Positions 33,801-36,299 of a stretch of 64,000 nucleotides of DNA are shown here, in pieces. Numbering within the stretch: the stretch's first letter is position 1; each line of letters begins with the position of its first letter. The DNA comes from Potamolinea sp. GTDB taxonomy: Bacteria; Cyanobacteriota; Cyanobacteriia; Cyanobacteriales; Coleofasciculaceae. The stretch lies in the NCBI GenBank assembly GCA_042408245.1, contig JAYFMV010000019.1, forward strand, positions 3,511-67,510. Direction: 5' to 3'. The notes beneath the pieces were generated by a model. The model searched no databases. It had not been told where the DNA came from and saw only the letters and a list, made by a program, of their open reading frames with translations. Made by a program: the position numbers and the translations under genes.

Positions 33801-35801
33801 TTAGGAAAGGCGATCGTCACGCAAAATTTGCAGATTCTTACGGAAGATAACAGTATTAGGGTGATTTGTTCCTAATCTTCGTTCCGCAATCTCTAAAGCT
33901 TGCAGATACAAAGGTTCAGCTTCCGTGTAGCGTCCTTGAGATTCGTAGAGATCTGCCAAATTGTTGAGACTGAGTGCGAAACGGGGATGGTCTTCTCCCA
34001 GCAGGTGTTTTCTCAACTCTAAAGCTTGCAGAAACAAAGGTTCTGCTTGTTCATAGCGTCCTTGAGATTTGTAGAGACCTGCCAAATTGTTGAGACTTTG
34101 TGCGACATCGGGATGGTCTTCTCCCAGAAGGCGTTTTCTCAACTCTAAAGCTTGCAGATACAAAGGTTCAGCTTCCGTGTAGCGTCCTTGAGATTTGTAG
34201 AGATATGCCAAATTGTTGAGACTGAGTGCGAAATGGGGATGGTCTTCTCCCAGCAGGTGTTTTCTCAACTCTAAAGCTTGCAGATACAAAGGTTCAGCTT
34301 CAGTGTAGCGTCCTTGAGATTCGTAGAGTGATGCCAAATTGTTGAGACTGAGTGCGAAATAGGGATGGTCTTCTCCCAGAAGGCGTTTGCTCAACTCTAA
34401 AGCTTGCAGAAACAAAGGTTCAGCTTCCGTGTAGCGTCCTTGAGATTTGTAGAGATATGCCAAATTGTTGAGACTGTGTGCGACATCGGGATGGTCTTCT
34501 CCCAAGCGTGCTTTAGTTGATGACAAGCATTGCTTGCACCACGGTAAAGCCTCGTTGTAGTTTCCTTGACCTTCGTAGAATCCTGCCAAGCCAACAAAGG
34601 GACAGATTAAATCATCATCATTCAACCAATCTGTTTGAGTAGTTGCGGCTTCTGCTAGATGAGGAATAATTGGGGTAAAGGCGGCAATTTCTGACAGAAT
34701 GGGTGTCTCAGGAATGTCCTTTGCTACAGCTACCATCACCTGACAAAACCTCCGCTTCAAGTCATCTGCTTCTGCTGACTTTTCCCGTTTATCCTGAAAG
34801 AATTCTCGAATTAGTTCATGTAATTGGTAGGTGTCTTTCTCGGTGCGCTTAATTAGGCTGAATTTTAGCAAAGTTCGTCGGGCTTTTGGCAAGTTTTGAC
34901 CTAACCCCCCCAGCCCCCCTTCCCTGCGAGGGAAGGGGGGAGTTGGAGTGGAGGGAGTTGGAGTAGGAGTGGAGGGAGTCAGAGTCTTACTCCCCTCTCC
35001 TTGCAGGAGAGGGGCTGGGGGAGAGGTCAACACACTTTCCACCAACGACCAAGGAATGGGTGCAGAGGCAAACACAGAAAGCAGATATCCTAAAATTTGG
35101 GCATTTTCGTCCAATTCCTGCCAACTCAACTCAAAGGCAGCCGCAACACCCAGCCGCGCCGTCATTTCAGGATGAGTCTCATCCAAGGCTTCACATTTCA
35201 GACTCGCTTGCACCAAAAGTTGTTGAATTTCTACTAGGGATAAATCCTCTTCAATATCCAAATATCGCCCCACTAACTCCAATCCCAAGGGCAAATAACC
35301 TAACCATTTACAAAGTTTTTCAGCAACATTTAACTGGCTATTTACCCGTTCATCCCCAATATACGACCTCAACATATCCAGTGCTGCATCTGGAGTCAGC
35401 ACCTGCAAATCTAACCGTTTAATCGGCGAACTCAACTGTAACCGCGTCGTGATCAACACCTTAAAACGCGGATCTGTTGGTGGTAAAAAAGGCTTTACAT
35501 CCTCATATTTAGTCACATCATCCAGCACTACCAGAACATCTCCCGTCCGCCAATTTCGCCAGCAGTACGCTACCTGATTTGGCAATTCCAAACCATCAGG
35601 AATCTGTAACTTTAAATATGTTCTGGCAAAGTTGACAATTTGAGTCCCCACATCCGAACTTCGCGCATTTATCCAGCAAATTCCACCGATGTATTTTTGC
35701 TCTGGCAAAGTAGCACGAGCGTACTGCAGCGCCAATTCTGTCTTACCGACGCCACCCATCCCAGCGATCGCAGAAATGGCTACTGTCTGTGTTTCCTGCA
35801 A
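33801..35801 (-). CDS. NB-ARC (STAND) NTPase fused to kinesin-light-chain-type TPR repeats, NLR-like
   Basis: Walker A GMGGVGKTELA, Walker B VLVVLDDV, GLPL-like GYLPLGLELVG. C-terminal TPR units are about 90% identical at DNA level to those of 27237-28865. The frame continues upstream through a single TGA (see 35916-36299). Confidence 0.85.
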   Translation of the reverse strand: MQETQTVAISAIAGMGGVGKTELALQYARATLPEQKYIGGICWINARSSDVGTQIVNFARTYLKLQIPDGLELPNQVAYCWRNWRTGDVLVVLDDVTKYEDVKPFLPPTDPRFKVLITTRLQLSSPIKRLDLQVLTPDAALDMLRSYIGDERVNSQLNVAEKLCKWLGYLPLGLELVGRYLDIEEDLSLVEIQQLLVQASLKCEALDETHPEMTARLGVAAAFELSWQELDENAQILGYLLSVFASAPIPWSLVESVLTSPPAPLLQGEGSKTLTPSTPTPTPSTPTPPFPRREGGLGGLGQNLPKARRTLLKFSLIKRTEKDTYQLHELIREFFQDKREKSAEADDLKRRFCQVMVAVAKDIPETPILSEIAAFTPIIPHLAEAATTQTDWLNDDDLICPFVGLAGFYEGQGNYNEALPWCKQCLSSTKARLGEDHPDVAHSLNNLAYLYKSQGRYTEAEPLFLQALELSKRLLGEDHPYFALSLNNLASLYESQGRYTEAEPLYLQALELRKHLLGEDHPHFALSLNNLAYLYKSQGRYTEAEPLYLQALELRKRLLGEDHPDVAQSLNNLAGLYKSQGRYEQAEPLFLQALELRKHLLGEDHPRFALSLNNLADLYESQGRYTEAEPLYLQALEIAERRLGTNHPNTVIFRKNLQILRDDRLS

Positions 35802-35915
35802 TTGCTGATCTAGGGTTTCGAGTGCGTCTTCTCGTCCAACAAATTTGGGAACGCCGCTATAGGGAAGATTTTGAGGCGGATTTAACGTTACCTGTTCCGC
35901 TTCAGGCGGCTGTAG

Positions 35916-36299
35916 TCAGAAGTTGAAGGTTTGTGTCCGATTATCGTTTTCGGTTGTACCTACATTCCCACCATAATTGTTCTTGACGATGTTTTTAATC
36001 ATCTGATTATATTTAGGTTGAGACTTCACCTCATTGGCGATTGCTTCTACTGTTGCTTTTACTTCATCGTTTTGCTTAGCAGCAGTTTCGACTTCCAGAA
36101 CAGCTTCACCGAAATATTCTGGATTTTCTGGGACAAGGGCAAGTTTTTCTGATGTCTTGGGAAACTTTTCTTTAATCAATTTCACCAATTTACCACTTTG
36201 CTCAAGTGCCTTTTCTCCCAGCACTTCACCACTCTTTTCAAATGCTTTGGTTACGACTAAAGTAGCGATCGCTCCTGCTGTTAGAGAAATAGGTTCCAT
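35916..36299 (-). other. N-terminal module of the NLR-like gene, separated from it by one in-frame TGA (interrupted gene, readthrough, or sequencing error)
   Basis: Same frame as 33801-35801 (offset 498 nt). Sequence after the TGA reads ...VPKFVGREDALETLDQQLQETQTVAISAIAGMGGVGKT, a typical NB-ARC pre-P-loop segment. The N-terminal module has an amphipathic Gly/Ala-rich first helix: ISLTAGAIATLVVTKAF. Confidence 0.6.

Follow-up and report, generated by a model that had tools for sequence, protein, structure and literature searches.

A conserved in-frame UGA and a putative RNA pseudoknot join a Bell-type effector candidate to an NB-ARC/TPR receptor in cyanobacteria, suggesting programmed readthrough

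Filamentous bacteria encode two-gene Bell/BASS/NLR amyloid-signalling systems (Dyrka et al. 2020, bioRxiv 10.1101/2020.01.06.895854). The effector of such a pair has a Bell-type N-terminal helix, a helical domain of ~100 amino acids and a C-terminal N/G/Q/T-rich motif, and the NB-ARC/TPR partner lies directly downstream on the same strand. The screen that described them demanded a motif at the NLR N-terminus, and neither that study nor the description of the Bab/Agp abortive infection system of E. coli ECOR25, with its Babybell structure PDB 9H9V (Ibarlosa et al. 2024, bioRxiv 10.1101/2024.11.07.622273), mentions stop codons or readthrough. The latter work describes MEPIS as the conserved N-terminus of Bell, Hell and Bab proteins and of several antiphage NLRs. 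Here, we analyze a locus in a filamentous cyanobacterium that shares all of these features of the two-gene systems except for its junction. It lies in a stretch of 64,000 nucleotides (nt) of Potamolinea sp. (the window; all locus coordinates are window positions), where a small Bell-type candidate and an NB-ARC/TPR receptor sequence are found on the minus strand in one reading frame, separated by a single UGA. Comparison with related loci suggests that the two parts probably form one translational unit with a programmed leaky stop.

The small open reading frame (ORF) has 127 codons (36299..35919, minus strand) and is closed by TGA at 35916-35918, as seen both in the ORF listing of the window, where end coordinates include the stop codon, and by pattern matching. 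Beyond the TGA, the same frame remains open for 704 codons (33804..35915) until a TAA at 33801-33803. The original prediction had described an effector-like module that is separated by a single TGA from an NLR-like NB-ARC/TPR ORF in the same frame, with a seamless translation across the stop into the NB-ARC segment. All of this is borne out, and the translated junction reads ...TQTFNF, the stop and then LQPPEAEQVTLNPPQNLPYSGVPKFVGREDALETLDQQLQETQTVAISAIAGMGGVGKT. The position given for the stop, 35913-35915, is however that of the following CTA triplet. The 704-codon extension consists of a linker (LQPPEAEQVTLNPPQNLPYSGVPK), an NB-ARC domain (Pfam match 35250-35831, E = 2.6e-15; P-loop GMGGVGKT at 35739-35762) and a TPR array (~33882-34610; TPR_10, E = 1.6e-86; TPR_12, E = 1e-73), and Pfam thus finds in it both the Walker A NTPase and the repeat sensor array of an NB-ARC/TPR receptor. 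The predicted product of the whole frame has 127+1+704 = 832 amino acids. TGA also serves as an ordinary stop in the organism: among the 29 long frames of the window (at least 250 codons), four end in TGA, none of them in TGA-C, and TAA is the commonest stop. A promoter and terminator scan of the window found nothing between the two ORFs, its counts being at chance level, and the junction pattern described below occurs once in the window compared with 0.02 copies expected by chance.

One genome per species was scanned, which gave 353 loci, and 80 of these were kept for classification. TGA is followed by a frame-0 P-loop NTPase at 55 of the 80 loci and by a different frame-0 ORF, 100 amino acids or longer, at seven; the others have a short continuation or contig end after the TGA (two loci), an ATG or GTG directly after it (two), TAA or TAG at the ORF end (11) or a truncated small ORF (three). 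In-frame TGA junctions are therefore counted at 62 of the 80 genome loci, and 10 more were found in metagenomes. The 67 distinct junctions of this TGA class all carry TGA, with C at position +4 in 64 and CTA as the next codon in 60. None has TAA, TAG or a sense codon at this position, yet TAA is only one G-to-A change away. An in-frame stop is thus kept, with a domain-encoding ORF beyond it, across homologues with 37-57% amino-acid identity in the Bell parts and 42-60% in the NLR parts. The hosts belong to the Nostocales, Coleofasciculales (Potamolinea, Coleofasciculus) and Pleurocapsales (Waterburya), and also include Aerosakkonema and Microcoleus. The TGA and its frame are shared by two close orthologues with 89-91% nucleotide identity that come from independent assemblies (L093, L094), and the complete genome of Nostoc sp. 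ATCC 53789 (CP046703.1, L091) carries the same junction. No match to the junction pattern was found in the viral contigs scanned. The comparison establishes that the in-frame UGA, its context and its frame are conserved. Judged from these alignments, the stop is a design feature, and the Bell module is not a fragment "cut off" by it, as the original prediction had described it.

The metagenome scan with the junction pattern also showed a Bell-like body or tail in the upstream ORF wherever the contig reaches that far; the exception, L089, has only 15 upstream codons. At L084 (Ga0209668_10269854), the frame upstream of position 1048 is open for 278 codons and starts with an unrelated segment (KYQIEQILKQAGLPTTMLRS...KHPEKYIGKE) before a Bell-tail-like segment is reached. 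This locus, on a 1-kb contig, may be rearranged or chimeric.

The identity of the 127-amino-acid protein was assessed from its sequence, a structural model and its relatives. Its N-terminus, MEPISLTAGAIATLVVTKAF, forms the hydrophobic Gly/Ala helix with an acidic residue at position 2-3 that characterizes Bell domains. This "MEPIS" helix (residues 1-22, MEPISLTAGAIATLVVTKAFEK; 36234-36299) is near-invariant among 31 homologues and is followed by a predicted helical bundle (residues 23 to ~100) and a BASS-like tail (residues ~101-127, IKNIVKNNYGGNVGTTENDNRTQTFNF; 35919-35999), all on the minus strand. The AlphaFold2 (AF2) model is all-helical, with 6-7 helices, and ends in a disordered tail (residues 110-127) with a predicted local distance difference test score (pLDDT) <50. 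The composition of the tail (NNYGGNVGTTENDNRTQTFNF) fits, at the level of sequence, an N/Q/G/V/I-rich beta-prone amyloid segment, and the same type of motif (NNYGGNVG..NDNRTQTFNF) is found on the NLR side elsewhere, in P0062 (NYNESIGGDYNDNRISINL). Homologues of the module are small proteins as well. A search of 5.8 billion proteins gave 53, all stand-alone and 90-153 amino acids long, most of which end in ...TFNF at the same position and one of which is a 100% match from a Potamolinea metagenome-assembled genome. In a profile search, 1.84 billion cluster representatives yielded 562 relatives, and the best 150 of these are nearly all 63-175 amino acids long; the five longer proteins among the best 150 have other C-termini and no Bell-NB-ARC fusion. 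A query spanning the junction also retrieved no fused protein, and the intact fusion that the original prediction had proposed looking for in orthologues did not turn up in either set.

Domain and fold searches were less informative. Pfam gave only sub-threshold matches of the 127-amino-acid protein to NdhO (E = 0.0047) and Cac1_C (E = 0.29), which were judged to be chance, NCBIfam and PADLOC gave no match, a PDB profile search gave only designed coiled coils (E of at least 0.009), and fold searches with the AF2 model found no significant match to HeLo/MLKL or any other PDB entry. Assignment of the ORF to the Bell-type cell-death domains with a BASS-like amyloid-signalling tail is nevertheless supported by the literal MEPIS start, the helical model with its disordered tail, the BASS pairing in its relatives and the taxonomic and genomic context. 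The Bell/HeLo-like character proposed by the original prediction is thus supported by motif and genomic context, including repetition of the C-terminal motif in two-gene NLRs, and by a model that is predicted to be a helical bundle, but not by fold.

The identity of the stop goes together with the architecture of the locus: all 11 relatives that end in TAA or TAG are ordinary two-gene arrangements. Where the gene after a TAA or TAG stop is an NLR, it has its own ATG, in any of the three frames, and an N-terminal copy of the C-terminal motif of the effector. At L059, the effector ends in ENWKGINIKGGNSTINNPNFNF and the NLR begins with MTTENWNGINIKGGNPVINISQSERAKLNPPKHLPYQGVRNFVGR... (its start is also given as MTTENWNGINIKGGNPVINISQSERAKLNPP...), the corresponding sequences at L030 and L073 are KLAEKIGIVVQGGTVNIEKLSL and MAEKIGVVNYGKTNIGTLIV..., and L040, L077 and L025 show a similar motif duplication. 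Those of the same subfamily (L030, L040, L059 and L077) are textbook examples of the systems of Dyrka et al. In contrast, the motif pair of effector C-terminus and NLR N-terminus is absent from the window locus and from the TGA class, where a single copy of the amyloid motif lies upstream of the TGA and the NLR part opens with the linker. The TGA class is collinear with the "motif + linker + NB-ARC" portion of its two-gene relatives. An NLR started past the TGA could not signal to the Bell protein because it would contain no motif, and the TGA class would escape the Dyrka et al. screen because a motif at the NLR N-terminus was required.

Conservation at the junction extends beyond the stop codon. 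The 45-nt junction has the consensus TGA CTA MAG YCG CCY GAA SSG GAA CRG GTA AAG TYA AAT CC. Mean pairwise identity at codon positions 1/2/3 is 0.84/0.83/0.86 in the 45 nt after the TGA, compared with 0.89/0.91/0.61 in the conserved N-terminal helix and 0.88/0.96/0.61 in the P-loop region. The junction is thus under nucleotide-level constraint and lacks codon periodicity. The conserved nucleotides can form a putative H-type RNA pseudoknot (35876..35907, minus strand), which is separated from the stop by an 8-nt spacer (CUACAGCC, 35908..35915) whose length is fixed in all main-class loci. In the window, stem S1 is formed by GCCUG (35903-35907) and CAGGU (35890-35894), and stem S2 by GCGGA (35896-35900) and UCCGC (35876-35880), with loops L1 (AA), L2 (A) and L3 (AACGUUAAA, 35881-35889). 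The family consensus pairs GCCYG with CRGGY in S1 and (S)SGGA, from the S1 loop, with UCCS(S) past the A-rich 9-nt loop in S2.

Pairing was measured on a main set of 53 distinct sequences, and the pseudoknot was also assessed on 45 sequences. In the main set, 97.9% of positions pair overall (S1, 99.6%; S2 as 4 base pairs, 95.8%), whereas slid controls reach at most 51%. Both-sided changes are seen in four of the nine pairs, and the covariation score is 0.236 versus 0.145 in shuffles, with none of 500 shuffles reaching it. Compensatory variants of S1 are found in L028 (GUCGG/CCGAC) and L076 (GUCCG/CGGAU), and variants of S2 in the window and L026 (GCGGA/UCCGC), L014 (CAGGA/UCCUG) and L012 (GAGA/UCUC). 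Two loci act as natural controls: in L038, a 1-nt insertion alters the encoded peptide while both stems are kept, and the two-gene relative L059 has a homologous linker peptide but is missing both 5' arms of the pseudoknot. Rfam gave only chance matches below gathering scores for the junction. Thus, the pseudoknot is supported by RNA covariation, in addition to pairing and third-position conservation, and the conserved UGA is accompanied by a conserved 3' context and a putative structure 8 nt downstream, to which one subclass of loci is an exception.

This exceptional subclass, in Nostoc, comprises 12 distinct loci (members L032, L034, L036, L041, L043, L045, L049, L053, L055, L058, L060, L061, L063 and L068) with the junction TGA CTA AAG TCG CCC CAA GGG GAA TCG ATA ..., in which a 9-nt deletion removes the 3' arm of S1 while TGA-CTA and the frame are kept. 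A TTG is always present 17-19 codons past the TGA in these loci, and RNAalifold found no convincing common structure in the subclass. A different structure may serve in these loci, or initiation there may be independent.

The frame-0 partners past the junction are not uniform. Besides NB-ARC/TPR proteins, which are the usual partners, they include other NB-ARC types (L038, L088, L090), an nSTAND1-WD40 protein without pseudoknot (L019, 5415...), a PsbP-like domain (L033, 5433...) and proteins of 124-313 amino acids without a Pfam match (L039, L065/L075, L076/L080 and L081, 704...). On this sequence evidence, the junction appears to be modular, placed before different sensor classes. A segment of L081, IVHFSGYG, is reminiscent of CHAT/caspase-like proteases. 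At L051 and L056, the TGA is directly followed by ATG or GTG (TGAATG, TGAGTG) in the same frame, with an unrelated downstream protein; this is classical stop-start coupling, unlike the TGA-CTA class.

Of the explanations that the original prediction offered for the in-frame TGA, programmed readthrough is the one favoured by the comparative evidence. We consider it likely that the locus is a single translational unit, with a programmed leaky UGA giving a short Bell-BASS protein and a rare Bell-BASS-NB-ARC-TPR protein. Most ribosomes would terminate at the UGA (35916-35918) and release the 127-amino-acid protein, a presumed membrane-targeting cell-death domain with its N-terminal MEPIS helix and C-terminal amyloid-forming tail. 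A minority would read through the stop, likely via near-cognate tRNA-Trp and helped by the weak UGA-C(UA) context and the compact pseudoknot 8 nt past the stop, and would produce the 832-amino-acid Bell-BASS-linker-NB-ARC-TPR protein. UGA is the leakiest of the stop codons, and autoregulation of prfB relies on UGA-C as a weak signal (PMC5289835). Upon a trigger, oligomerization of the TPR/NB-ARC part would cluster the BASS segments of long-form molecules, and these would nucleate an amyloid, which would then template the abundant short form and free its Bell helix to damage the membrane, resulting in abortive infection or cell death. Signalling of this kind is established for the two-gene Bell/NLR pairs and for Bab/Agp; what would differ here is that the ratio of sensor to effector would be set by readthrough efficiency and that a single amyloid motif would serve both partners. 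More speculatively, readthrough efficiency may respond to infection or translational stress, for instance via the activity of release factor 2 (RF2), and thereby arm the system. The more general proposal, that the junction is a portable pseudoknot-programmed UGA connector yielding an executioner and a sensor with one amyloid motif in common, is one towards which we lean with less assurance.

Several points weigh against this reading. Support for it is comparative: the occurrence and efficiency of readthrough, the residue inserted at the UGA, stimulation by the pseudoknot and amyloid templating are all inferred. To our knowledge, there is no described precedent for pseudoknot-stimulated stop codon readthrough in a cellular bacterial gene. 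Annotation pipelines call two genes at junction loci, the NLR of Nostoc ATCC 53789 is annotated from a TTG 60 nt past the TGA, and in most Nostoc loci a possible independent start, TTG or GTG, lies 2-8 codons ahead of FxGR. As for the RNA element, the shuffle control keeps the phylogenetic signal, sequence relatedness being uncorrected, and S2 has only 4 base pairs and is weak in L088, L090 and L093. The pseudoknot is not strictly required for the arrangement, because the L032 type lacks the 3' arm of S1. Finally, the window NLR itself contains a dispersed double-hairpin repeat (34899..35023, minus strand) inside its winged-helix region, which is in frame, encodes SPPAPLLQGEGSKTLTPSTPTPTPSTPTPPFPRREGGLGGLGQ and adds ~45 residues that are missing from the orthologues L093 and L094. 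From its sequence, the repeat looks like a MITE-type insertion (miniature inverted-repeat transposable element) that keeps the ORF open; it is outside the proposed mechanism and may have left the window copy of the NLR impaired or non-functional.

The main rival explanation is that there are two ordinary genes, with the NLR translated from an internal start and the 45-nt element acting as a regulatory RNA for coupling or mRNA stability rather than for recoding, the common frame having been inherited along with this conserved element. Such an arrangement would agree with the gene calls of the annotation pipelines, and the junction resembles a non-coding element in its lack of codon periodicity. 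In Nostoc, the candidate start would be a TTG or GTG a few codons upstream of FVGRE; in the window, it would be non-canonical or further downstream. Starts were surveyed in the interval from TGA to FxGR at 45 distinct NB-ARC loci. ATG, GTG or TTG codons occur 2, 3, 6 or 8 codons before FxGR at 33 of these, and the invariable TTG of the L032 subclass fits the same explanation. However, the combinations of candidate starts vary, their position is not conserved, and at 12 of the 45 loci, including the window, L093 and L094, there is no ATG, GTG or TTG in the interval at all. Past the TGA of the window, no such codon occurs until the TTG at 35801, which lies 13 codons ahead of the P-loop and 38 codons from the stop, so that the NB-ARC part is left without a plausible start of its own; the Pfam NB-ARC match starts upstream of this TTG, at the FVGRE segment, and initiation at the first start in the window, L093 or L094 would delete this conserved beginning of the domain. 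The downstream part thus has no conserved start codon.

The reading frame also bears on this question. The distance from TGA to FxGR is 24, 25, 26 or 28 codons at the 45 loci, and since these four distances are whole codons, all insertions and deletions have preserved the frame. Frame 0 is open in all of these loci, whereas frame +1 contains stops in 45 of 45 and frame +2 in 38 of 45. In addition, termination alone should allow TAA, the commonest stop, or TAG at the junction, and their absence from all 67 loci weakens the case for two genes. The NLRs of the TAA/TAG type have both their own ATG and a BASS copy, but NLRs of the TGA class, if translated separately, would lack an amyloid motif and could not take part in signalling. 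The original prediction had named consistently separate genes with an independent NB-ARC start as the observation that would contradict a fusion; orthologues do consistently keep the stop, but they share no such start. Overall, independent initiation with a regulatory RNA spacer is unlikely for the family, and it is a standing alternative for those Nostoc loci with a TTG or GTG near FxGR.

Another rival is termination-reinitiation, in which ribosomes would remain bound to the message after termination, possibly through the pseudoknot, and begin again at a non-AUG codon close by, giving an NLR without Bell-BASS. According to Dyrka et al., Bell and NLR ORFs often overlap or abut in the family, and the two stop-start loci, L051 and L056, would be examples of such coupling. 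However, the codon after the stop is CTA in 60 of 67 loci, which is not a plausible start because it matches AUG at one position only, nor is any near-cognate codon conserved after it. Restarting ribosomes would have no need for a common frame, which is nevertheless found throughout, and the resulting NLR would again be without an amyloid motif to contact the effector. We regard termination-reinitiation as improbable.

Still less probable is insertion of selenocysteine or another non-standard residue at the UGA, with the downstream hairpin as an element resembling a selenocysteine insertion sequence (SECIS). The stem-loop does lie 11-28 nt past the UGA, roughly at the position of a bacterial SECIS. 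However, with its second stem it would form a pseudoknot, a fold not characteristic of SECIS elements, neither Cys nor any other sense codon is seen at the UGA position in any homologue, the site falls in a linker after the amyloid motif and not in a redox motif, and the two-gene relatives end the short protein at exactly the same point. The cyanobacteria with selD that have been surveyed (Prochlorococcus and Synechococcus, Nostocales not being among them) were described as not decoding selenocysteine (PMC1273633). A tRNA scan found no genes in the window and so indicates that no suppressor tRNA or selenocysteine tRNA is encoded locally, which says nothing about the rest of the genome.

Frameshifting was considered as another form of recoding and rejected. 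A prfB-like +1 shift at UUC UGA C would enter a frame that closes after ~9 codons in most loci, and 51 of the 67 loci have UUC, which cannot re-pair. For a -1 shift there is no slippery heptamer, and by eye the -1 frame closes after ~16 codons in Nostoc-type loci. Because a +1 shift yields only ~9 further codons, only in-frame readthrough reaches the NLR. Lastly, the stop could have arisen in a once fused Bell-NLR gene by a recent nonsense mutation, or it could reflect faulty sequencing or assembly. Both possibilities, which the original prediction had listed, have in their favour only the bare fact of an in-frame stop and can be given practically no weight, as the stop recurs in independent assemblies of close orthologues, in a complete genome, at 62 of 80 related loci from several cyanobacterial orders and at all 67 distinct TGA-class junctions, while the 53 homologues and nearly all of the best 150 of 562 representatives are stand-alone proteins, with no fused homologue in either protein set.

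The surroundings of the locus were also recorded. The double-hairpin repeat (CCYCTCTCCTGCAAGGAGAGRGG plus CCCTTCCCTYGYAGGGAAGGG) is present in three copies in the window, those outside the NLR being at 33440-33497 and 60358-60415. Downstream of the NLR, at a distance of 465 nt and on the same strand, lies a full-length homologue of major vault protein with 889 amino acids (30666-33335, minus strand), which matches the Pfam families Vault repeats, Vault_2/3/4 and MVP_shoulder (E = 1e-60 to 5e-14). Such proteins occur mainly in eukaryotes. The upstream neighbours, within 36481-38464, are an ORF with a GIY-YIG nuclease domain (36481-36900, plus strand), a DUF2442/DUF4160 pair (37170-37656, minus strand) and a DUF429 gene (37727-38464, plus strand). 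In the orthologous contigs L093 and L094, DUF429 is again next to the Bell gene, and PIN/toxin-antitoxin genes are found near the Bell locus in these two and in Nostoc ATCC 53789.

If programmed readthrough does take place at these loci, the conserved structured signal would join the few cases of programmed recoding known from chromosomal genes of bacteria, and would be the first pseudoknot-dependent stop codon readthrough signal in a cellular bacterial gene. It would also represent a new wiring of NLR and executioner, in which one amyloid motif is common to the short and long isoforms, so that co-evolution of receptor and effector motifs becomes unnecessary and stoichiometry is fixed at translation. 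Hundreds of cyanobacterial pairs of a "hypothetical protein" and an "N-terminally truncated NB-ARC protein" would then be mis-annotated, and motif-based screens for amyloid pairs would have systematically missed the TGA class, the largest among the retrieved genome loci. The junction itself is short (~45 nt) and portable.

The type of system is known, and the principle of recoding is known from viruses, but the two together, in a conserved chromosomal family of bacteria, appear to be undescribed. Our literature search on readthrough in Bell, NLR or cyanobacterial contexts found no description, and a general study of in-frame stops in prokaryotes (Belinky et al. 2021, PMC7918605) does not touch on cyanobacteria or RNA structure. 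Compared with the two-gene systems of filamentous bacteria, the NLR of the window class has neither its own start nor an amyloid motif and lies instead in frame behind UGA-CUA and a pseudoknot. With Bab/Agp, the window locus shares the MEPIS-type N-terminal helix and, in the proposed arrangement, a C-terminal amyloid motif common to effector and sensor. For Bab/Agp, amyloid-triggered cell death in phage defence has been shown by experiment. Bab/Agp does not involve recoding, however, and the AF2 model of the window protein has no significant match to any PDB entry.

As a recoding signal, the closest counterpart is the gag-pol junction of murine leukaemia virus, a viral signal acting in eukaryotes that consists of a UAG stop, an 8-nt spacer and a larger H-type pseudoknot. 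The order of stop, 8 nt and H-type pseudoknot is the same in the window, and so, as proposed, is the combination of an abundant short product with a rare extended one. The window signal differs in being bacterial and chromosomal, in using UGA-CUA and in having a pseudoknot of 5 and 4 base pairs with an A-rich 9-nt loop 3. Leaky UGA codons are indeed exploited in bacterial translation, as in the A1 protein of phage Q-beta, a readthrough product of the coat gene, and in prfB, which uses weak UGA-C as a regulatory stop. Q-beta A1 is however a phage gene, and we know of no adjacent pseudoknot at its readthrough site, while prfB uses a +1 frameshift. In fungi, both the separate HET-S/NWD2 pair and the fused "all-in-one" HeLo-NLR exist, and there, too, the pore-forming helical effector has an amyloid motif for which the sensor NLR provides the template. 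The arrangement proposed for the window would be a hybrid of these two architectures, with one ORF giving both a free effector and a fused receptor by means of a leaky stop.

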